Sequence record: LC739535.1
DNA from: Escherichia phage phiWec186
Reading direction: 5' to 3' (one strand)
DNA: 64,000 bases
How positions within the stretch are numbered: position 1 is the first letter of the stretch; every line of letters begins with the position of its first letter. Shown here piece by piece: positions 12,368-36,183 of the stretch. Both the position numbers and the translations under genes were made by a program. The notes below the pieces were generated by a model. That model was not told where the DNA came from. It saw only the letters and a list, made by a program, of their open reading frames with translations, and searched no databases.

Positions 12368-12834
12368 ATTGTTCAGGCTATGAAGCAACAGACATGCTTA
12401 ACGGAGAAGGGGTGAGATGCTCTCTATGGGTCAGTGGATGTAGCCACGGATGCAGAGGATGTTTCAATCAGAAAGCCTGGTCATACTCTTACGGCGCAGC
12501 TTTCACAGAAGCAGATGTAGAACGTGTGTTAGCAGATTTGGCACGACCTTTCATTAAAGGTGTAACAATCTTAGGGGGAGAACCTTTAGACCCACAGAAT
12601 ATTGATGAAGTTTATAAGTTGATACTCCGAATCAAGGAAGTGTACGGGGAAGATAAGGATGTGATGGTGTATACAGGATATTTGTTTGAAGACATTCCTT
12701 CCCACATCAAGAATGTTGTGGATACAATCATGGATGGTAAATATGATTTAAATCAACCAACAGCAAAGCCATTCAGAGGTTCTGATAATCAGAGATTATG
12801 GAACAAGAAGAATGGTATTTGGCAAGCAGATTAA
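12364..12834 (+). CDS. nrdG: anaerobic RNR activating enzyme (radical SAM)
   Basis: NGEGVRCSLWVSGCSHGCRGC (CxxxCxxC); N-terminus aligns with E. coli NrdG if the TTG at 12364 is used. Confidence 0.8.
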   Translation: MNCSGYEATDMLNGEGVRCSLWVSGCSHGCRGCFNQKAWSYSYGAAFTEADVERVLADLARPFIKGVTILGGEPLDPQNIDEVYKLILRIKEVYGEDKDVMVYTGYLFEDIPSHIKNVVDTIMDGKYDLNQPTAKPFRGSDNQRLWNKKNGIWQAD

Positions 12835-12847
12835 TACAGGAGATAAT

Positions 12848-13039
12848 ATGGTTACGTATTTTGCAGTTAAAAACGAAGTAGGGACGGCTGGGAAGCTGAT
12901 TCTGGACAGCGATCGAGATACCCGTGAGGTTATTTGTACCCTGATTGATATTTTACAAAGAAAAGAGTTGCTTTCTGATCGGGACATTGCTAATCTATTG
13001 GATATCGGCGGTGACGAACTCGAACGACTGCCATTCTAA
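12848..13039 (+). CDS. hypothetical protein
   Basis: ATG at 12848 after AGGAGA. Confidence 0.45.
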   Translation: MVTYFAVKNEVGTAGKLILDSDRDTREVICTLIDILQRKELLSDRDIANLLDIGGDELERLPF

Positions 13040-25050: not shown

Positions 25051-25734
25051 ATGGAAAATATTAAAATTGGGGTTGGCGTTATCACTGTAGGTGTTCGTCC
25101 ACTTAAAGATTACATGGTTGCACCTGGTGTAGACTTCAAAGTGTTTCACGATCCCGATCGTAAAGGTGTAGCTTATGCTCGCAACCAATTAATGAAACAG
25201 TTCTACGATGAAGGTTTTGACTACTGGTTCATTTTTGACGATGATTGCTATCCGGTTAAACGTGGCTGGGAAGAATACTTCGTTAACCAGGCTGTCGAGA
25301 ATGGTTGGGACTTCTTCGGTATGCCAGAATACTTCAAAGATACTGTGATAGGTTGTTCTGGAGAAGTAGTCTTCTGGGAATTGGCTATGTGTCAGTTTGC
25401 AATGTATTCTCGTGCAACTGTTGAGACGATGGGTTATTTCCGTCCTTATACACACGGATATGGTTTCGAAGATGCAGAATGGACTAATCGTCTGAAAGCT
25501 TCAGGTTTGAATAAAGGACTCCAGGGCGTACCTTGTCCGATGCGCATTATGGCGTACATTCACCCCGACGATGTTTTCGGTGATAACCCTTTACCTTTTG
25601 CTAATCTGACAAAAGAAGAGAAAGAATCAGCAATCGGGATCAATTGGGAAGAATACAAACTGTCTTTGGAGGATATTAATAATGGCAAAACACACATCTC
25701 TTTTGAAGAGGCTGAAGGATATGGCGTTAAATAA
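25051..25734 (+). CDS. putative glycosyltransferase (GT-A fold)
   Basis: WFIFDDDCYP acidic motif after a beta-strand-rich N-terminus. Confidence 0.45.
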   Translation: MENIKIGVGVITVGVRPLKDYMVAPGVDFKVFHDPDRKGVAYARNQLMKQFYDEGFDYWFIFDDDCYPVKRGWEEYFVNQAVENGWDFFGMPEYFKDTVIGCSGEVVFWELAMCQFAMYSRATVETMGYFRPYTHGYGFEDAEWTNRLKASGLNKGLQGVPCPMRIMAYIHPDDVFGDNPLPFANLTKEEKESAIGINWEEYKLSLEDINNGKTHISFEEAEGYGVK

Positions 25735-26668
25735 GAAACCAACCCTACTGTGTGACAACAAATTCAACAGTGGTTGTGATTACCATCGCATTGTCATGCC
25801 ATTTTCTAACACAGAGATCAAGCCACGTACTGATGTACTGGTCTTTAACCGCATCTTCTCGAAGGGTGCTGATGAAGTAGCCAAACTTAAGCGCCAAGGT
25901 GTTAAGATTGTTGTAGATTTGGATGATTTCTATCAATTGAATCCAGAACACTACCTGGCGCATCTGTACGCGCCAAACACCCGCACAATCGTGGAAATGG
26001 TTAAAATAGCAGATATTGTCATTGTCACAACCGAATACCTGGCGTACAAAGTTCGTCACTTAAACTCTAACGTTGTTGTGATCCGAAATGCTCTACCGTT
26101 TGATGATGGTCAATTCACTCTCTCGAATGATCGTACTTCGGGTACGCCTATCATTTGGGCTGGAGGTGCGAGTCATGAACCGGATTTACGTTTGCTTTCA
26201 AACACTTTTGATGATAGTTTATTGTCTATCGCAGGGTATGAAGCGAGCAGCACAGTGACAGGGCAAGAGTGGGTTAAGATCCGCCGTAGTTTGCCTAATG
26301 CGCAGTATAAACCTGCTGTAGATTCTTTGAATCATTATATGTCTGCATACGATGGTCATGCTATGGCTGTAGCTCCGTTAGTAGATAACGACTTCAACCA
26401 TTGCAAGAGCAACCTGAAAGTATTAGAAGCTGGTGCTAAAGGCATTCCAATCGTTTGTTCTAAGGTATTACCTTACTACAACCCGATCGATGCCCGTGCA
26501 GTAACCTTCGCAGATAGCAAAGCAGAGTGGCACTATGAAGTTGTAAAACTACTTCGTAATCCAAACTACCGCGAAGATCGTGGACTGTTCTTGGCTGAAC
26601 ATGTTCGTACTCACTACAACTTGAAGGATGCAAACGAATTGCGTCGTCAAGTGATCGAAAGTCTGTAG
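25721..26668 (+). CDS. putative glycosyltransferase (GT-B-like), tandem paralog 1
   Basis: Homologous to the next gene (CDYHR..., IWAGGASHEPDL, KSNLKVLEAGAKGIPIVCS); start could also be the ATG at 25682. Confidence 0.5.
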   Translation: MALNKKPTLLCDNKFNSGCDYHRIVMPFSNTEIKPRTDVLVFNRIFSKGADEVAKLKRQGVKIVVDLDDFYQLNPEHYLAHLYAPNTRTIVEMVKIADIVIVTTEYLAYKVRHLNSNVVVIRNALPFDDGQFTLSNDRTSGTPIIWAGGASHEPDLRLLSNTFDDSLLSIAGYEASSTVTGQEWVKIRRSLPNAQYKPAVDSLNHYMSAYDGHAMAVAPLVDNDFNHCKSNLKVLEAGAKGIPIVCSKVLPYYNPIDARAVTFADSKAEWHYEVVKLLRNPNYREDRGLFLAEHVRTHYNLKDANELRRQVIESL

Positions 26669-26674
26669 GTGTTT

Positions 26675-27619
26675 ATGGGACAAATTATTCTTGACAATCG
26701 TGGTGGAAAAGAATATAGTGTCTGTGATTATCACCGAGTAATGCTGCCTTACACAAGGCAGTTCTCGGCCCAACCGTCACAGAACGTATATGTCTTTAAC
26801 GGTGTCCCTACGAAAGGGAAACAAGGCTTCATAGCCCTTAAGAGCATGGGCTTTAAGATGGTAATGGATTTGGATGACTCTTTAAACATTCCCCAAGGCC
26901 ATATGCTGGAAGACATTTTTGATGCAGGTATTCGAGAAGACTTGCAATGGTTCCTCGAACGCAGTGATCTTGTAACGACAACAACCCCTGCTCTCCAGGT
27001 GGAATTGTCCCAGTACAATCCTAACGTGCATATTATCCCAAATGGTTTACCGTTTGACGAGGATCAGTTTACGTTAACTCGTGATCGCTACTCCAAGTCC
27101 CCTGTAGTTTGGGCTGGAAGTGAAACACACAAGCAAGACCTGGCTCTACTACCGAACTTCGGGAGTGACTTAACGATTTGCGGATTCCGCAGAGATAGTG
27201 AAGTGTTAAGTAGTCAGCAATGGACCGATATACGTGAAAAGGTGGCTCCAAGCTGCAAATATGAGGCTGTTAGACCATATGAGAGCTATATGGAATCTTA
27301 CGACGGTCATCAGATAATGCTTGCACCTCTAACAGATAACATGTTTAATAACGCTAAGAGTAACCTGAAGATTCTGGAAGCAGGTGCCAAGGGTTTACCT
27401 TTAGTGTGTTCTCCCCGTGAAAACTACTTCACCGAAGAGTTTAAAGATTTGTTGTTCTTTGCAGAAACAAAAAGCGAGTGGGAAGATATTGTTAATTACC
27501 TGATCCAGTGTCCTGATGTGGGTATTGAAAAGGGATTAGCTTTAGCTAAGTATGTTCGTAAGCATTACCATATTGATGTGCTGAATGAACGCCGTAGATT
27601 ATTATTTGAGGAGTTATAA
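26675..27619 (+). CDS. putative glycosyltransferase (GT-B-like), tandem paralog 2
   Basis: VCDYHR..., VWAGSETHKQDL, KSNLKILEAGAKGLPLVCS; GTG at 26669 is an alternative start. Confidence 0.5.
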   Translation: MGQIILDNRGGKEYSVCDYHRVMLPYTRQFSAQPSQNVYVFNGVPTKGKQGFIALKSMGFKMVMDLDDSLNIPQGHMLEDIFDAGIREDLQWFLERSDLVTTTTPALQVELSQYNPNVHIIPNGLPFDEDQFTLTRDRYSKSPVVWAGSETHKQDLALLPNFGSDLTICGFRRDSEVLSSQQWTDIREKVAPSCKYEAVRPYESYMESYDGHQIMLAPLTDNMFNNAKSNLKILEAGAKGLPLVCSPRENYFTEEFKDLLFFAETKSEWEDIVNYLIQCPDVGIEKGLALAKYVRKHYHIDVLNERRRLLFEEL

Positions 27620-27906: not shown

Positions 27907-28551
27907 ATGACCATGAGGTTAGTACAAGGTTGGGGGATTAATGATATAGGTAGTATCCCTAAAACAGGTTTTATCCGAGTAGCTTACAGGTGTTGGTCAA
28001 GAGTTTTAGAAAGATCTCACAGTAAAGCTTGGAAGAATAAGTATCCTACATACAAGGATGTAACATGTTGCGAAGACTGGAAATATTTTTCAGTATTCAT
28101 GGACTGGATGGAGACACAACCTTGGGAAGGAAACGATTTGGATAAGGATTTGTTAGGAGATGGTAGCTTATACTCCCCTCAAACTTGTGTTTTTATACCT
28201 CCTGAAATAAATAAAGCTTTAGCTGCAAATAAAAAACAAGGAGAATTCTTATCTGGAGTCTGGTTTCAAACAAAGTCTAAAACTATGGTTAATAGTTTAA
28301 AACGTCCTTGGGCTGTTAAAGCCCATAGACAGGGTAGTAAAAAACCTGTATATTTAGGAAACTATTATTCAGAACAAGAAGCCCATAATGTGTGGTTGAC
28401 TACACGCGCAGAGGATATGTTATGGTGGTGCGACCAATGGGAAAACAACGAGAAGTATAATAAATCTTGGAAACCTGTGTTTAAAGAAGCTTTTAATAAG
28501 AAAGCTGAAGCTTATAGAGGGAGGATAAAAAATGTCATACATTGTCACTAA
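27907..28551 (+). CDS. AP2-domain homing-endonuclease-like protein, paralog 1
   Basis: Conserved N-terminal block (RCWS...CCEDWKYF...LDKDLLGDGSLYSPQTCVF) plus C-terminal AP2-like GVWFQ...LGNYYSEQEAHNVW; paralog at 33022. Confidence 0.45.
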   Translation: MTMRLVQGWGINDIGSIPKTGFIRVAYRCWSRVLERSHSKAWKNKYPTYKDVTCCEDWKYFSVFMDWMETQPWEGNDLDKDLLGDGSLYSPQTCVFIPPEINKALAANKKQGEFLSGVWFQTKSKTMVNSLKRPWAVKAHRQGSKKPVYLGNYYSEQEAHNVWLTTRAEDMLWWCDQWENNEKYNKSWKPVFKEAFNKKAEAYRGRIKNVIHCH

Positions 28552-30313
28552 GTATGGTTTTGATGTAGATTTAAGCAAAGAGGGGCACACAGGGTGTCCC
28601 CGTTGTATGAAGAACGGAAAAGATAGATCGAAGAATAACTTGATGTGTTATGGGTTGGATTCTAACGATGAGCATAAAGGAGCAAAATGCTTCGCGTGTG
28701 AGTACACAATCCCCAGCGTTGAATGGTTACGAGAGAATGGTGAAGTTTTAGAAGAAGAGGAGGATATTGTGGGTTCGGAATTTAATAAAGAGATTCATCG
28801 TAAGATTGTAGAAGAAACAGGCACTAACCCACGAGGCTACCGTGGGATCAAGGAAGAATATTCTAAATTCTACGGTGTACGTTACCAGTACAAACAAGAA
28901 GAATCTGGTGTTGTTGTGGAACATACTTTGTATCCAACAACTATCGGTAAAGAACTGGTAGGTTTTAAGCGTCGTATCCACCCTAAAGACTTCTCCAAGC
29001 CCATTGGTCAAGTAGGTAAAGATGTAGATTTGTTTGGACAAGTTCGTTTCCTTGAGCGTTCCCACACCGTAATCATTACTGGTGGTGAACATGATGCCTT
29101 GGCAGCATATCAAATGTTGGCAGAAGGTCTTGACAGGAAATATGAATTACCAGCAGTAGTTAGTGGCACAACTGGTGAAACCAGTATGTACAAACAGGTA
29201 CAGGCACAGTACCCTTTCTTTGAGAAGTTCAAGAAGATCATCGTCTGCATGGATAATGATAAGGCAGGTAAAGAAGCTTTTGAGAACATTGTGAAGGTGT
29301 TGCCTCGTAATAAAGTTTACCTGATGAAGATGGAACTGAAAGATGCTAATGAATACCTGGTGCAAGATAAAGCAAAAGATTTTGTGAAAGCTTATTGGGG
29401 TGCAAAACTTTATACCCCAGCGGGTGTTTATGCTTCGAACGAACTTTATGAAGCTGCAATGGACTGTCTGGATGCACAAGTGATCACCCTCCCTCCGTTC
29501 ATGCGTACTGCTGCGAACATGTTGGGTGGTGGTCTGGTAGAAGAAGAGATCACAGTTATTCTGGCTAAAACGAGTATCGGTAAGACGTTGATGGTCAATG
29601 AGATCACCAAACACATTATCGTGGCTCATCCAGAACATGTGCTGGGTATTCTGTCTCTGGAGGCAACGTATAAGAAATACTCCCGTAACCTTCTTTCTTC
29701 GTTCCTGCATATTCCTTTGCATCGTAAGACTAAGGAAGAAAAGGCTGCGATCCTGGAAGAGAACAAGGAAGCTATCAATAACTTCTACGTTCGTGAAGAT
29801 GGTTCTCCTCGCTTCTTTGTTTGTGATGATCGTGGTGCAGACATTGATTCAATCAAGGAGAAAGTGCTGGAGATGATCATCTACTTCGGCATTACCATCC
29901 TGGTAATTGACCCATACTCGGATCTGTTGTCGGGGATGAGTGTTCAGGAACAAGAAGAGTTGGCAACGTGGTTGAAGCGCATCATGAAAGAATACGGCAT
30001 CACGATCATTGTAATCTCGCACGTTAAGAAAGCTGCCAACAATGGTAACGAACACTTAACAGAAGATGATGCAATGGGTAGTAGCTTCTTGGCTAAAGGC
30101 GCAGGTATTACACTGGCACTGGAACGAGATAAGGCTAACGATGACCCCGTACTTAGAAACACAACTTTTTGTTATATTCTCAAAAACCGAGAGTTTTCAG
30201 AAACTGGTCCGGCTGGGGAGTTTTATTACGATATTAAAACTGCCACGCTACACGACAAAGCACAGTATTTTGCTAACCCTGATAATGCAGGTGGTGCAGA
30301 AGGCGCGTATTGA
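28532..30313 (+). CDS. DNA primase/helicase (T7 gp4-like)
   Basis: N-terminal Zn finger CPRCM...CFACEY, TOPRIM-like IIVCMDNDKAGKEA, DnaB-type Walker A AKTSIGKT. Confidence 0.8.
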   Translation: MSYIVTKYGFDVDLSKEGHTGCPRCMKNGKDRSKNNLMCYGLDSNDEHKGAKCFACEYTIPSVEWLRENGEVLEEEEDIVGSEFNKEIHRKIVEETGTNPRGYRGIKEEYSKFYGVRYQYKQEESGVVVEHTLYPTTIGKELVGFKRRIHPKDFSKPIGQVGKDVDLFGQVRFLERSHTVIITGGEHDALAAYQMLAEGLDRKYELPAVVSGTTGETSMYKQVQAQYPFFEKFKKIIVCMDNDKAGKEAFENIVKVLPRNKVYLMKMELKDANEYLVQDKAKDFVKAYWGAKLYTPAGVYASNELYEAAMDCLDAQVITLPPFMRTAANMLGGGLVEEEITVILAKTSIGKTLMVNEITKHIIVAHPEHVLGILSLEATYKKYSRNLLSSFLHIPLHRKTKEEKAAILEENKEAINNFYVREDGSPRFFVCDDRGADIDSIKEKVLEMIIYFGITILVIDPYSDLLSGMSVQEQEELATWLKRIMKEYGITIIVISHVKKAANNGNEHLTEDDAMGSSFLAKGAGITLALERDKANDDPVLRNTTFCYILKNREFSETGPAGEFYYDIKTATLHDKAQYFANPDNAGGAEGAY

Positions 30314-30396: not shown

Positions 30397-32994
30397 ATGA
30401 GTAAGTTTACATGGGATATTGAAGCAACCGCATTACTGAACAATGACACAATTGATTACCTGGCAAGCCCTTATCGATTGAAAGACACTTTTGGTATGCA
30501 TTGTATTTGTCTGGAAAACCACGAAACAGGAGAGATCATTGCTTTTCACGATGGTCCTAAGTACATTTTCGATGGTCGTCCTTATGAAGAGTCTGACGGT
30601 AAGTACACTTATGTACTGAAGGAGTATGTGGCACAAGAATACACACACTTTCCTCTGTCAGATTTTCCAGATTTTGTCAACCATACAGGCAAGTTCGCAG
30701 ATAAGCCTGAATACCTCGTAGAAATGGCTGTAGCCCACAACGGCATCAACTATGACCACTTGGCAGTTAAGCTTTACTACGGGCTGAATTACAGCGTTAA
30801 ATACAATACTTGGGGTGATTCGAAAGTTAAGATTATTGATACCCTGATCCTTAGTAAAGTATTGAACCCTGATCGCAAGGTTGATGGTAAACCTGGGCAC
30901 AACTTGAATGCTCTTTCTAAAAAAGCTGGCGGTGATGTTAAGATTGATTTCCGTAAAGAGCTTCCAGAAGGAGAACGATTCAAGACTTTCGCAGCAGATA
31001 TGTTGTACTACTGTATCTACGACAACAAGGCAACTACAGCAGTATATTATTACCTCATGGAAGAATGGGGCGATTATAAGAAGTGGCAAGAGCCGTTCGA
31101 CTTGGAGCAACGTATTGCGGATATCATCACCCGTCAAGAACACCGTGGCTTTAAGTTCAACATGCAACAAGCTGAACAGAACCTGGAATTCTTGGACAAA
31201 GAAATGGAACGTCTACGTTTGTTGGTAGAGCCTATTCTTCCACCTAAGCCAGCGACTAAAGGTTATCTGAAAGATTTTATTCCGCCGAAACTTCAAATCA
31301 AGAAGAACGGTGAGCCAACAAACCATATCATCAGGTTTGCGGAGAAACATGGCGGTAGCCTTGAAGAACGTGAAGGTGATTGGTGGCTGCTTGTTTTAGA
31401 TAAAGAGTTTAAGTTACCGATCTCAAGTGAAGAACCTATTTGTGAACCTACCATTCCGTCTACGCTGAATGATACGACACACATTAAAAACTGGCTTGTA
31501 GGTTTAGGTTGGGTTCCGTCTGAATATAAAGACAAGGATTTGACGCTTAAATCTGGTTCGAAGATCAAGAAAGATCCTGACGACTTAGAGAAAGGTATTC
31601 TGTCTTATGTCAAACAGACCTTGGAAAGCAATTTCTGTAATGACCGTTGCGAACACTTACAAGCCGATGCTGAAACACTGGAGCTTAGAATCCGTGAACG
31701 TCTGGCTAAAGGGAAAGGTCGTGGTCTTAAAGTGCTGACCAACCCATGCTTCACGAAGGGGCAGGAGAAAGAGATTTGTCCTAATCTTGAAGCACTGGGC
31801 GAGAAGTTCCCGTATGCCACACAGATTGTGCAGTACCTGACGTACAAACATCGTCGAAACTCTATTTTGGGCGGTGGTGCAGATTGGGAAGACGATGAGG
31901 AAGATCAAGAATACGACAAAGGTTTCTTGGCAGCAGTTCGTGCCGATGGTCGTATAGCGACTCCAGCGGCTACATGTGACGCTGCAACATCTCGTATGAA
32001 GCATCGCTCTGTTGCTAACGTTCCTCGCGTTACATCGTTGTTTGGGTACGAAATGCGTAACTTGTTTGGGGTAGAAACACCGCGTTACTTCCAGATCGGT
32101 TATGACTTTGACTCCTTGGAAGCAAAGATTGAGTCGCATTATTGTTGGCGCTACGAACCGGAGCCTCATGAATACTGTAACGCTCTCTTGTTGGAGAAGC
32201 CTAACGATGTTCATACCATGATGGCAAGACGTATCACAGAAACTATTGGACGTAAGTTTGAACGTAGTCCAGCTAAATCTGTTAAATACGGGATTACATA
32301 TGGAGCACAGGCAGACAAAGTTGCTAAGACAATTGGTAGTGATAAGTACACAGGACAACTGGTATTTGATGCGTTCTGGGAAGCAGCTTTCCCGTTAGCA
32401 CAACTGAAAGAGAAGTTGAATGCTTTCTGGGTTAACACTGGCAAGCAGTATGTTCTCGGTATTGATGGACGTAAAGTTCCAACACGATCTGCACATGCAA
32501 TCTTAAACTCCTTGTTCCAAAGTGGCGGGGTTATCTGTGCCAAGCGTGCAATGGTAATCTATGACGATATGATTGAAGAGGAAGGTTTAGCTGTTGACTT
32601 CTTCGTAGATGACTGGAAGAATAAAGAGTTCGTTCAGCAAATGATTGCTTACCACGATGAAGCGCAGCTTGAAGTATCTCGTAACTTGGTGGAATTTAAA
32701 TGGTTCTCCAAAGAGTCTTTAGGTTGGGTTAAAGTGGATGACGAGAAAGAGCAGAAGAAAATAGATGCGGAATGTCTTGCAAAAGCTAATGAATGGAAGC
32801 ATAATAAAGAGAAAGAGACAGGGCAGATTTGGGCTAACGTTCACGAATCACCTAAAGGTGGTTGGTTTACCGCTTATAGTCGTGCCGGAGAACTTGCTTC
32901 TCTTGCTGTTATCAAAGCTGGGGAATATTACAAACTAAACGTTCAGCTTACCGCTGGATACGATGTTGGTAGTTCCTGGGCCAGTTGTCATTGA
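30397..32994 (+). CDS. DNA polymerase, family A (T7-type)
   Basis: Exo I WDIEATAL near the N-terminus, motif B RSPAKSVKYGITYGA, motif C IAYHDEAQ. Confidence 0.85.
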   Translation: MSKFTWDIEATALLNNDTIDYLASPYRLKDTFGMHCICLENHETGEIIAFHDGPKYIFDGRPYEESDGKYTYVLKEYVAQEYTHFPLSDFPDFVNHTGKFADKPEYLVEMAVAHNGINYDHLAVKLYYGLNYSVKYNTWGDSKVKIIDTLILSKVLNPDRKVDGKPGHNLNALSKKAGGDVKIDFRKELPEGERFKTFAADMLYYCIYDNKATTAVYYYLMEEWGDYKKWQEPFDLEQRIADIITRQEHRGFKFNMQQAEQNLEFLDKEMERLRLLVEPILPPKPATKGYLKDFIPPKLQIKKNGEPTNHIIRFAEKHGGSLEEREGDWWLLVLDKEFKLPISSEEPICEPTIPSTLNDTTHIKNWLVGLGWVPSEYKDKDLTLKSGSKIKKDPDDLEKGILSYVKQTLESNFCNDRCEHLQADAETLELRIRERLAKGKGRGLKVLTNPCFTKGQEKEICPNLEALGEKFPYATQIVQYLTYKHRRNSILGGGADWEDDEEDQEYDKGFLAAVRADGRIATPAATCDAATSRMKHRSVANVPRVTSLFGYEMRNLFGVETPRYFQIGYDFDSLEAKIESHYCWRYEPEPHEYCNALLLEKPNDVHTMMARRITETIGRKFERSPAKSVKYGITYGAQADKVAKTIGSDKYTGQLVFDAFWEAAFPLAQLKEKLNAFWVNTGKQYVLGIDGRKVPTRSAHAILNSLFQSGGVICAKRAMVIYDDMIEEEGLAVDFFVDDWKNKEFVQQMIAYHDEAQLEVSRNLVEFKWFSKESLGWVKVDDEKEQKKIDAECLAKANEWKHNKEKETGQIWANVHESPKGGWFTAYSRAGELASLAVIKAGEYYKLNVQLTAGYDVGSSWASCH

Positions 32995-33021: not shown

Positions 33022-33618
33022 ATGCTTACTGTATATGGTGAAGGTATTAATGATCTGGAGGGTGAGAGCACTCTACCTGGTAGTAAGAAACTGACTCCTC
33101 ATTATATGAAATGGATGGCTATGTTGGGGAGGTGTTACTCCCCTTGCCAACAAGAACGTGATCCTTGTTATCATGGGGTGCTGGTCTGTGAAGAATGGAA
33201 GCTGTTTTCCAACTTCTATGCTTGGTTAAAAACTTGGGAAGAGTGGGAGAAATTAGAATTAGACAAGGATATTATTGGAGGGGGAGTTTACTCCCCTAAC
33301 ACCTGCCTTTTAGTAACAGGAGATCTTAACAAGTTCTTAGCTTATAGAGTGAGTAAAAGATCTCATGGAACTATGGTAGGTTTACATTACGAAAAAGATC
33401 GTAAGAAGTATAAAGCCAATATTAAAACAGGCTCACGCATGGTAACACTTGGACGTTTTGATACTGAACTTGAGGCGCATCTTTGTTGGTTGAAAGCTAA
33501 AGCAGAACAACTTACAAAGTTTTTTGAAACAGAAGACAAAAGAGTTGTTCCACATCTTAAAGCATTGTATAATGATATGCTTGAACATATTGAACAACGT
33601 AAGGAGTGGACACGATAG
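33022..33618 (+). CDS. AP2-domain homing-endonuclease-like protein, paralog 2
   Basis: LGRCYS...VCEEWKLF...LDKDIIGGGVYSPNTCLLV plus AP2-like GLHYEK...LGRFDTELEAHLCW. Confidence 0.45.
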   Translation: MLTVYGEGINDLEGESTLPGSKKLTPHYMKWMAMLGRCYSPCQQERDPCYHGVLVCEEWKLFSNFYAWLKTWEEWEKLELDKDIIGGGVYSPNTCLLVTGDLNKFLAYRVSKRSHGTMVGLHYEKDRKKYKANIKTGSRMVTLGRFDTELEAHLCWLKAKAEQLTKFFETEDKRVVPHLKALYNDMLEHIEQRKEWTR

Positions 33619-34000: not shown

Positions 34001-34219
34001 ATGCGTAAATTAGTGAGTTTTAATGTTTCAATTCTGATTGATGAACAAAATGAAGATGTTATTAAAGGTCTTGCAAATAAGATTGAAGGTGGAATGACGG
34101 AAGCAGAAGTATGGGAAGAATGTGCTCGACTTTATGAAGCAGGTGTTCTTGAAGTCTTGGAAGATGAGATTAATATGGATGATGTTGTTAAAGTAACTGT
34201 GGAGCGTATCAATGACTAA
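34001..34219 (+). CDS. hypothetical protein
   Basis: SD AAGGAGAAG. Confidence 0.5.
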   Translation: MRKLVSFNVSILIDEQNEDVIKGLANKIEGGMTEAEVWEECARLYEAGVLEVLEDEINMDDVVKVTVERIND

Positions 34220-34817
34220 ATCAAGCCAGATTACCCTTGCCCGTGAGATCCTTACTGTTCTTAAGATTGCTGATCCTCGTTCAATCCTGGCAGGTGGCGC
34301 GGTCCGTGATTGGTACATGCTGGACATTGCAGGGCGAGATCTGGACTTCTATACATCATTCCAGCCACACCGAAACATAGATCAGGTGATTACGTTTATC
34401 AAAGAGAATCTTAAAGGCACCAATGTAACCGTGTTAGGTCAGGAGGAAATGGGTGACAACTATGAGTCTATGATCGGACTGAAACATGTGTTTGAGTTTA
34501 TCCGTGATGATCAGGTTTGCAATCTCATGATCATGGAACCATGCTACATGAGCAACATCCTGAAAAACTTTGATCTTTCTGTTTGCAAAGCTTCGTTTGA
34601 TGGTGTAGAATATTACTTCGATCCTGACTTCCTGGTAACAGATGCAACAAATATTTGCTTCGTGCATAAGGATGTTAAAGTGGATGCGAAACACGTCCGT
34701 AAGATCGCGGATCGCTTCCCGCACATGCGTTTTGTACGTGACTTGGATGTGCAGCGTCGCACGCAAGATAAGGCTCTACCAAAGTTCGAAGATACTGATG
34801 AAGATATTCCTTGGTAA
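34212..34817 (+). CDS. Pol-beta-superfamily nucleotidyltransferase (CCA-adding / poly(A) polymerase head-domain-like)
   Basis: GGAVRD and RDLDFY motifs (LAGGAVRDWYMLDIAGRDLDFY). Confidence 0.6.
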   Translation: MTKSSQITLAREILTVLKIADPRSILAGGAVRDWYMLDIAGRDLDFYTSFQPHRNIDQVITFIKENLKGTNVTVLGQEEMGDNYESMIGLKHVFEFIRDDQVCNLMIMEPCYMSNILKNFDLSVCKASFDGVEYYFDPDFLVTDATNICFVHKDVKVDAKHVRKIADRFPHMRFVRDLDVQRRTQDKALPKFEDTDEDIPW

Positions 34818-34861
34818 TAAAGCTTGACTTTCACTAATCTTTTATGATAGGATGACAATCA

Positions 34862-35257
34862 ATGACTGAACGTTCAAAAGTAAGTGTTGAAACTGAATAC
34901 AGCGAATACCTGAACAGTTTGATACTTGTTGAAAAAGATGTAATAGGTCTGGATAACTCGTTCTTCTTTCAAATCCTGATAGGTAAGGGTGGACACCGAA
35001 AGTTATTCTCTCGCGTGGAAGACTCTGACCTATCCGAAACTGAAATAACGGTTAAAGAACTTATTAGCCTACAGGATAACATCCGAAAAGTTATTGACAC
35101 AGCCGGGAACGCTGTTACAATAAAACTCGACATGCATTCTGTGCAATTTGTTCATTTTCCGAATGGAGAAATTGGAGTTGGAATAGGTAAAGGTAAGTAC
35201 CTTTTAGAAAAAGAAAACGCAGAGCTTCTTCGTGAGTTCTGTGCAAAAACAATGTGA
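34862..35257 (+). CDS. hypothetical protein
   Basis: 131 aa ORF; weak SD. Confidence 0.45.
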   Translation: MTERSKVSVETEYSEYLNSLILVEKDVIGLDNSFFFQILIGKGGHRKLFSRVEDSDLSETEITVKELISLQDNIRKVIDTAGNAVTIKLDMHSVQFVHFPNGEIGVGIGKGKYLLEKENAELLREFCAKTM

Positions 35258-35274
35258 ATATAGAGGAGATAATA

Positions 35275-36183
35275 ATGTCCGTAATTAATACTGAAACTGA
35301 TCGTAAAGGCAAAACTGTAACTTATGCAACTGGTGTTGTAGACTACGTTAAACTGGATAAATTCGCAGAGCCTAAAACCTTCCAATGGGATGGTAAGTCG
35401 ATTGTTTCTACTCACCGTGCTTCACTCGTTCTGAAAGAAAAGGGTGCCAAGCAGGATGCAAAAGGGACGTGGATTAGCCTGGGTGATATTGAACTGAAAG
35501 AAGGTTACGAAAATCTTCAGGTTAAAGATGGTGATACTTGGATCACTATCGAAAAAGGTGTTGAAGTTAGTATTGATATCGACAAAGTTGATACCAAAGG
35601 CGACAAAACTTACTACAATACCAAGAAATCTCGTATCACTGTTCTTTCTACTGAAGGTGTTCAGAAGAAAGAAAATAAATCTGGTGGGACTGGCGTTTCA
35701 GGTAATACTGGAAACAAACAATCCTTCAAAAAACGTGATACCGTAGGTCTTGAGACTGGTCATGCAGTTAACGGAGCTTTGGAACTGATTCGTAATGGTG
35801 TGAAAGGTGAAGCGTTTGATATTGCAGGTGTGGTTCAGTCTGCTACTGTGACTCTGAAAGCTGAAGTGGCTAAAGAGCGTGGCGTAGATATCAGTGATTA
35901 TGATCTGGGGGCTTCTGTTGGTCACGCTGTTCTGAATGCCTGTAAAGATCATTCCGGTAAGACTGTTTCGGTAGAAGATTTGATTGAAACTGCTCGTGAA
36001 GTTCTGGCACTTTCTGACAAGGTAGCTAATGCCATTCGTGGCGCAGCAGAACAACCTAAGAAAGAAGAAGCCAAGAAAGAGCCTAAGAAGGAAGAACCGA
36101 AGCAGGAGCCTAAACAAGAACCTGCTCCTCAACAAAATCCAGAAGAACCTCCAATGGACTTCGATGATGATATTCCATTCTGA
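35275..36183 (+). CDS. ssDNA-binding-like protein with E. coli SSB-type C-terminal tip
   Basis: Ends in PPMDFDDDIPF after a Pro/Glu/Lys-rich linker; ATG at 35275 after AGAGGAG. Confidence 0.55.
   Translation: MSVINTETDRKGKTVTYATGVVDYVKLDKFAEPKTFQWDGKSIVSTHRASLVLKEKGAKQDAKGTWISLGDIELKEGYENLQVKDGDTWITIEKGVEVSIDIDKVDTKGDKTYYNTKKSRITVLSTEGVQKKENKSGGTGVSGNTGNKQSFKKRDTVGLETGHAVNGALELIRNGVKGEAFDIAGVVQSATVTLKAEVAKERGVDISDYDLGASVGHAVLNACKDHSGKTVSVEDLIETAREVLALSDKVANAIRGAAEQPKKEEAKKEPKKEEPKQEPKQEPAPQQNPEEPPMDFDDDIPF

Follow-up and report, generated by a model that had tools for sequence, protein, structure and literature searches.

What is a phage protein of some 200 residues, carrying the catalytic motifs of CCA-adding enzymes, doing among the genes of a DNA replication module? 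The question is raised by a gene in the window, that is, the whole 64,000-nt stretch of DNA analyzed here. With 100% identity, the window is found in phiWec179 and phiWec181, two Escherichia phages (Phapecoctavirus, Stephanstirmvirinae), and in phiWec181 it corresponds to bases 58521-122520. A sequence-only reading had assigned the gene product to a stand-alone head domain of the CCA-adding enzyme/poly(A) polymerase type, and had suggested that it could repair tRNA 3' ends damaged by host anticodon or acceptor-stem nucleases or tail other RNAs.

Here, we evaluate both parts of this proposal on the basis of profile, structure and gene-neighborhood comparisons. The structural part is found to hold. 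The tRNA part, on the other hand, lacks the features that would be expected for it, and we will argue, tentatively, for an enzyme tethered to the replisome or to the SSB interactome.

The family of the protein, henceforth called NTase, was defined with HMMER, by exhaustively searching 1.84 billion representatives with a profile of its orthologues. Neighborhoods were analyzed in 80 IMG/VR loci containing family members, for which ORFs were called, the enzymes were grouped at 70% identity into 47 lineages, and the neighbors were clustered within 7 genes and 6 kb. For checks on the whole phage, a reconstructed genome of 154,550 bp was used.

The Gene and Its Records

The open reading frame is present exactly as proposed. 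The NTase gene occupies 34212..34817 on the + strand (stop codon included) and encodes 201 residues, with GGAVRD at residues 28-33 and RDLDFY at residues 42-47. The ATG start has a GGAG 7 nt upstream, and the frame shares an 8-nt overlap with the preceding small ORF. In the 44-nt gap between the stop codon and the next gene there is a promoter-like site (34824..34853, +), consisting of TTGACT and, after 18 nt, TAGGAT with a TG extension; across the region such sites are no more common than in shuffled sequences.

It should be pointed out that the gene, its motif and the label 'tRNA nucleotidyltransferase/poly(A) polymerase' are already public. In the records of phiWec179 and phiWec181 the gene is annotated as 'hypothetical protein', and the orthologues of phAPEC8, ESCO5 and nieznany are labeled 'putative tRNA nucleotidyl transferase / poly(A) polymerase' or 'nucleotidyltransferase'. 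A search of the literature in a searchable library gave no paper that assigns a characterized function to the family. A 98%-identical homologue (P0001) carries the precomputed Pfam label PF26128.2, which hmmscan with the copy of Pfam used here did not recover, even at E ≤ 10.

Catalytic Core and Fold

We consider the catalytic core first. Motif A, AGGAVRDWYMLDIAGRDLDFY (residues 27-47; 34290..34352, +), contains AGGAVRD at residues 27-33 followed by D43-L-D45 and matches motif A of the solved CCA enzymes. No other segment aligns by sequence to PF01743 or to these enzymes. In two alignments, of 139 and of 114 relatives, G28, G29 and the metal-binding residues D43 and D45 are invariant, A27, A30, R32, D33 and W34 are at least 90% conserved, and the family consensus reads AGGAPRDW...DLDFY. 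A check for missing catalytic aspartates, suggested together with the original assignment, thus finds the DxD carboxylates intact. In the 139-sequence alignment, Y84 and K164 are near-invariant, the latter position being K in 134 sequences and R in 5. Q6 and A10 (123/139 each) fall just below 90% there and exceed 90% in the separate alignment of 114.

The candidate for the third catalytic carboxylate is E95 (34494..34496, +), located on a β-strand (residues 90-98) of the predicted model. It is invariant among close homologues, and among the 139 distant relatives the position is E or D in 96 and N in 20. E95 is likely to be the counterpart of the class II catalytic Glu. K164 (34701..34703, +) belongs to a helix of the model (residues 160-168) and possibly contacts the triphosphate.

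The predicted model displays the α-β-α-β-α-β core of the Pol-β superfamily, in which strand 2 contributes two carboxylates and a neighboring strand the third, and its three-dimensional fold is that of the head domain. The folded part stops near residue 176 and gives way to a disordered tail. The protein is acidic, with a pI of 5.1 and a net charge of −4 on the core. The assignment to a class II CCA/poly(A) polymerase-type head that stands alone in about 200 residues is thus borne out by the fold, and we conclude that NTase either descends from the class II head domain, as found in CCA-adding enzymes and poly(A) polymerases, or shares a common ancestry with it. That G28, G29, D43 and D45 are invariant and R32, D33, W34, Y84 and K164 near-invariant at a mean column identity of about 18% argues for a working active site. 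We therefore infer that NTase is a catalytically competent minimal nucleotidyltransferase.

Relation to CCA-Adding Enzymes

A head-domain fold does not by itself make a CCA-adding enzyme, and the profiles that define these enzymes are not satisfied here. With 15 bits, the PF01743 score stays below the cut-off (23 bits), and of the 126 profile positions the match covers only 3-34, corresponding to motif A. For the NCBIfam CCA equivalogs the scores are even further from the thresholds, 13.3 compared to 438.8 bits for TIGR02692 and 12.2 compared to 290 bits for NF009814. The phage profile phrog_10174 ('nucleotidyltransferase'), in turn, is matched with E = 2.7e-45 over residues 1-127, and phrog_1614 with E = 1.1e-8 over residues 9-173. 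When the PDB was searched with the single sequence (phmmer), nothing relevant was obtained, and BLAST with E. coli Cca against the phage genome did not pick up NTase.

In the class II enzymes, motif B (RRD) reads the ribose 2'-OH, while motif D (EDxxR) is the protein template that selects CTP or ATP. Because the family profile reached motif A alone, both in the search against the PDB and in that against Cca, motifs B to E cannot be aligned rigorously, and a pairwise alignment with E. coli Cca was used together with the conservation in the family. This alignment, which is colinear but weak, places LKRRDLTINALAQD...IIDP...GEDPLRVLRVARF of Cca opposite LKNFDLSVCKASFD...YFDP...KDVKVDAKHVRKIADRF of NTase. 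A relic of motif B, NFDLSVCKASFD (residues 119-130; 34566..34601, +), is found opposite RRDLTINALAQD in the same local alignment, with N-F-D where Cca has R-R-D. In the 139-sequence family alignment, the residues at the motif B position include D (39 cases), P (31) and S (27), with no conserved Arg; the consensus here is F-x-x-S-I-C, followed by the helix that bears H/Y161 and K164. Motif D has no conserved counterpart anywhere in the family profile, the segment of NTase opposite to it being D-V-K-V-D in a weak alignment of uncertain equivalence.

The tRNA-binding parts are missing as well, as NTase has 201 residues compared to about 370-450 for the CCA enzymes, leaving no room for neck, body and tail. 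By these defining features, the protein is a class II-type head and not a CCA-adding enzyme.

We have also considered nucleotidyltransferases of toxin-antitoxin and defense systems (MenT, AbiEii, MNT). Neither a match to a defense profile nor a toxin-antitoxin pair was found, and PADLOC gave 0 matches for NTase.

Family and Distribution

The profile search returned 433 clusters at E ≤ 1e-3, with 107 at E ≤ 1e-10. The best 150 representatives have a median length of 201 residues; 136 of them fall between 160 and 260 residues and 2 have at least 350. A length of about 200 residues is thus typical of the family, which means that the small size is its normal state and not the result of a truncation. 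The N-terminal extensions of the longer members (P0136, P0103, P0111 and others) contain no Pfam domain and hence give no clue from domain fusion. ORF223 of Vibrio phage ICP1_2012_A (locus L005, 4956..5375) ends after about 139 residues, just beyond the motif-B-like segment; it represents an even smaller version of the protein, unless the gene is truncated or split.

The family is apparently restricted to phages, or nearly so. It is present in 193 GenBank phage records, in which the identity is about 60% for Phapecoctavirus and about 35% for Justusliebigvirus and which also include many phages of Vibrio, and in the 80 IMG/VR loci, and a motif scan of 185,579 species genomes gave 9 loci, all on MAG contigs, several of which are phage-sized. 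The structure matches in BFVD include phage proteins of 167-225 residues, some of them from Autographiviridae.

Replisome Neighborhood

In the window, the genes are arranged in the order primase-helicase, polymerase, HNH endonuclease, three small ORFs, NTase, a 131-residue protein and a 309-residue protein with an SSB-type tail. The primase-helicase (28532..30313, +; 593 aa) is of the gp4 type, with a zinc ribbon (cysteines 22, 25, 53 and 56), a Toprim domain and a DnaB-like part (Pfam Toprim_2 and DnaB_C). It is followed by a family-A, T7-type DNA polymerase (30397..32994, +; 865 aa; PF00476, E = 4.6e-14), which in phage PHB05 is called 'T7-like phage DNA polymerase'. Directly before these replication genes there are three consecutive glycosyltransferase-like ORFs (25051..27619, +), one of which has a weak match to a TET-associated glycosyltransferase; genes of a dTDP-rhamnose pathway (rfbA/C/D and a partial dehydratase) are found in phiWec181 away from these ORFs (locus L098, 1..3127).

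The HNH endonuclease (33022..33618, +; PHROG 953, E = 1.3e-69) lies between the polymerase and the block of small ORFs and NTase. This stretch is not covered by the matches in PsgM04F, phiWec188 and phiWec190, which have query position 616 as their start. As several relatives lack the gene here, it probably represents a mobile homing-endonuclease insertion that stands outside the system. Downstream of NTase, the 131-residue protein (34862..35257, +) matches PHROG 16560 (E = 1.4e-54), which has no assigned function, and has no sequence match in Pfam or the PDB. It is conserved at offset +1 from NTase in 5 lineages, and the 309-residue protein (35254..36183, +) is kept at offset +2 in Stephanstirmvirinae loci.

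This arrangement is not peculiar to the window, as the family is embedded in T7-type replication modules with gp4-like primase-helicase, family-A polymerase and flap endonuclease. A family-A DNA polymerase is found within 6 kb of NTase in 28 of the 47 lineages, compared to 10.4 expected for random placement at the observed contig sizes, and 0 of 200,000 simulations reached 28 lineages; for contigs of at least 80 kb the corresponding numbers are 12 of 21 and 2.8 (P ~5e-6). These figures have to be read with the caveats that synteny can be inherited, that phage genomes are modular, and that the lineages are not phylogenetically independent. The other neighbors among the 47 lineages include the gp4-type primase-helicase (25), a flap endonuclease (FEN; 9) and HNH endonucleases (14). 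It should also be borne in mind that gene neighborhood in phages mirrors timing classes too, and that anti-host genes are interspersed in T7-type replication regions.

One option considered was that NTase compensates for a primase without a zinc ribbon. This was rejected for the present phage, as the gp4-like protein of the window has Cys22, Cys25, Cys53 and Cys56, and about 8 of 29 related helicases seem to be ribbon-less. The latter, among the distinct gp4-like primase-helicases that accompany family members, start at the Toprim-proximal region (loci L032, L040, L043, L049, L050, L054, L074 and L079); they may lack the ZBD in the manner of T7 gp4B and Twinkle, or be split genes.

C-Terminal Tip

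We next consider the tail that follows the folded core. It consists of a linker (residues 177-195; 34740..34796, +) and a hexapeptide tip, DEDIPW (residues 196-201; 34797..34814, +). The linker is modeled with low confidence (pLDDT < 50 for residues 178-195) and varies in length and sequence among the orthologues, while the flanks are conserved. The tip resembles DDDIPF, the docking hexapeptide of the SSB C-terminus, SSB-Ct (PMC5872125). A disordered linker leading to an acidic hexapeptide that ends with Pro and an aromatic residue is what characterizes the carriers of SSB-Ct, and NTase has this arrangement. The orthologues of 56-98% identity all have a DDIPW-type end (one has DSFPW), with P200 and W201 invariant and D197, D198 and I199 at least 90% conserved.

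In the whole reconstructed phage genome, a DxDIP[FW] end is found in two ORFs only, NTase and the 309-residue protein. The last 12 residues of the latter, EPPMDFDDDIPF, are those of E. coli SSB, as confirmed from the K-12 genome. Three further ORFs of the phage combine an acidic tail with a terminal aromatic residue, among them NrdB, for which an acidic docking tail is known. A putative ORF of 75 residues (12812..13039, +) that ends with ...GGDELERLPF also belongs to these five.

The 309-residue protein is annotated as SSB in some relatives. Its body has no sequence match in Pfam or the PDB, and the SSB PHROGs are matched via the tail alone; it could be an SSB of a non-canonical kind, by which the phage connects to the SSB interactome of the host. 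In phage PHB05 (Justusliebigvirus), the SSB-tailed protein, gp149 (locus L002, 6053..7000), has DFDDDIPF followed by 15 extra residues (APIGLQYGRNFLHCF), which could reflect a read-through in sequencing or annotation, or a masked tip.

Across the family the picture is mixed. Of 147 full-length representatives, 28 have an aromatic end, and 15 of these have at least two acidic residues in the last 8 positions; 7 end with P[FWY], including 5 with IP[FWY]. In the IMG/VR set, the last residue of NTase is aromatic in 15 of the 47 lineages, compared to 12% of the other ORFs. F or Y is the last residue of many gp4-like helicases encoded in these loci, where SSB-like proteins end with DDDIPF, DDVPW or EDTPW. 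T7 itself has C-terminal docking tails on gp2.5 and gp4. Most family members are tip-less, and a Justusliebigvirus homologue of 35% identity, for example, ends with NEEFKI. The function of the core can thus not depend on the tip, which should be viewed as a lineage-specific address label and not as belonging to the core mechanism. NTase is most likely docked by it onto proteins that read SSB tips, either the phage polymerase or replisome or the SSB-interacting proteins of the host. A tip of the SSB type suggests a connection with the machinery of replication and ssDNA, and not with tRNA.

Mechanistic Proposals

On the basis of these results, the reading that we tentatively prefer is that of a nucleotidyltransferase tethered to the replisome or to the SSB interactome. 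According to this proposal, the parts by which a CCA-adding enzyme binds tRNA (body and tail) and reads ribose and base (motifs B and D) would either have been lost from the family or never have been present, and the Phapecoctavirus enzyme would have gained a disordered linker and DEDIPW, a near copy of the SSB tip. Docked through this tip, NTase would use an NTP or dNTP as the donor for nucleotidyl transfer onto a 3'-OH offered by the partner, with no tRNA being measured. With the RRD motif lost, the usual check of the ribose is absent, which makes the use of a dNTP conceivable. The acidity of NTase fits with the need for a partner; on the other hand, it is unusual for a protein that handles nucleic-acid ends on its own and thereby counts against the proposal. 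Two other observations also count against it, namely that the nearest solved structures act on 3' ends of tRNA or RNA and not of DNA, and that the SSB-like tip is lineage-specific.

The original suggestion of repair of host or phage tRNA 3' ends damaged in infection, or of RNA tailing, perhaps with the aid of an RNA-binding partner, has to be weighed against this. It draws on the fact that the best structural relatives are all tRNA CCA-, CC- or A-adding enzymes or poly(A) polymerase. In addition, one of the 10 tRNA genes of the phage, that of tRNA-Tyr(GTA) (phiWec181 132309..132392; locus L007, 10310..10393; − strand), is without an encoded 3' CCA. Furthermore, no full-length Cca homologue is present in the reconstructed genome, by which the possibility that NTase is redundant beside a genuine phage Cca could be rejected.

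Full-length Cca homologues do exist in phages, with 415 residues of which the first 230 are 40-56% identical to E. coli Cca; 475 phage records have one, among them records from the sister subfamily Vequintavirinae. Vequintavirinae are absent from the 193 records that match the mini NTase, and the two enzymes may thus have a complementary distribution. This leaves some room for a tRNA role, but the gene contexts differ nonetheless: the Cca gene of PVP-SE1 (gp159) is remote from the replisome genes and has NrdD, PhoH, ClpP and a Trna.2-like gene as neighbors.

Several observations argue against the tRNA repair. The other 9 of the phage tRNA genes, all 10 of which lie outside the window, already encode CCA, and the host has its own Cca. 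NTase lacks the neck, body and tail for binding a tRNA, motifs B and D are not conserved, the scores are below threshold (15 compared to 23 bits for Pfam and 13 compared to 439 bits for NCBIfam), and the protein is acidic. In addition, the family adjoins replisome genes and not genes for tRNA or RNA repair, and an SSB-type tip has no obvious role in such a reaction. None of the tests carried out here supported this part of the sequence-only reading, and we consider it unlikely.

A function in host takeover or anti-defense, in which NTase would inactivate a protein or a small molecule by AMPylation or NMPylation, is in our view similarly improbable. In this case, the tip would recruit NTase either to the host partners of the SSB tail, namely exonucleases, helicases and restart proteins, or to a different target. 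There are precedents for inactivating nucleotidylation, by MntA on HepT and by the ANT enzymes on antibiotics.

A more specific scenario is that the family acts as a primer-end nucleotidyltransferase of T7-type replisomes, which, docked on the polymerase or the SSB interactome, would build, extend or restore C/A 3' ends on short RNA primers or on tRNA primers, from which the phage polymerase could then start lagging-strand or origin synthesis. The T7 primase makes pppACCA and pppACCC primers, and the ACCA 3' end of a tRNA can reportedly prime T7 DNA synthesis, so that a CCA-type core in T7-type modules might act on primer ends. We regard this scenario as very unlikely as it stands.

Finally, a non-enzymatic decoy, in which the tip competes with SSB for its partners and the NTase fold is a mere scaffold, would agree with the strict conservation of the tip among the Phapecoctavirus orthologues and with the replacement of E95 by N in 20 of the 139 distant relatives, but is highly improbable in view of the invariant and near-invariant active-site residues and the lack of the tip in most family members.

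The preferred reading of a tethered enzyme would, if correct, have some general consequences. Hundreds of virulent phage lineages would possess a stripped CCA-type core that serves DNA replication and not tRNA, NTase would be an unrecognized accessory enzyme of T7-type replisomes, and a docking peptide copied from SSB would have re-addressed an enzyme. Should the primer-end scenario apply, it would amount to a new accessory activity of the replisome and to a second life for the catalytic core of CCA-adding enzymes. If instead the tRNA reading were true, no tRNA-end transferase smaller than NTase would be known, and NTase would be a candidate for counteracting tRNA-targeting defenses. The database label 'tRNA nucleotidyltransferase/poly(A) polymerase' over-states the current knowledge under either reading, and the 433-cluster family constitutes a well-defined target for biochemistry.

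Comparison with Known Systems

That NTase fails the CCA tests, that its large and apparently phage-restricted family is tied to T7-type replisome genes, and that the Phapecoctavirus version has an SSB-type tip, seems to be unreported so far. The closest relatives among the solved structures are the class II CCA enzymes and poly(A) polymerase I (PF01743; 1miv, 3aql, 4wby, 3h37 and 3wfo; E. coli Cca). These have 370-450 residues compared to the 201 of NTase, which is without their body, tail and HD domain and without a conserved RRD or EDxxR. The full-length Cca proteins of phages (Salmonella PVP-SE1 gp159 and Klebsiella phage Iguana; about 415 aa) are, like NTase, phage-borne Pol-β enzymes of the class II lineage, but they are located in auxiliary regions, whereas the NTase family is found in the replisome module.

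The structure with PDB code 2la3 (Streptococcus pneumoniae NP_344798.1; 191 aa), described as 'CCA-adding enzyme head domain', is of bacterial origin, and no SSB-like tip was found in it. No sequence relation to NTase could be detected, the entry being absent from the family-profile search of the PDB at E ≤ 1. The short phage proteins of PHROG 10174 and 1614 (for example in Pseudomonas phage LKD16, phiNV3, Pectobacterium PP2, Caulobacter Cd1 and Vibrio ICP1, ORF223), labeled 'nucleotidyltransferase / poly A polymerase head domain', have a size and fold like those of NTase and are uncharacterized. A Foldseek search of BFVD gives TM values of 0.5-0.8 for short phage nucleotidyltransferases, the Autographiviridae proteins being more distant with TM ~0.55. 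The DDIPW tip is confined to Phapecoctavirus and a few scattered clusters, and in this respect these enzymes differ from the other short phage nucleotidyltransferases.

As to the tip itself, the closest known systems are the docking tails of E. coli SSB (SSB-Ct) and of T7 gp2.5 and gp4, which are likewise acidic with an aromatic end. DEDIPW of NTase and DDDIPF of SSB are identical at 4 of 6 positions, the other two being the E/D and W/F exchanges, and SSB-like proteins with DVPW or DTPW ends occur in related loci. While the tip of SSB is attached to an OB-fold that binds ssDNA, that of NTase is carried by a nucleotidyltransferase fold, which it would presumably dock to the same kind of partners.
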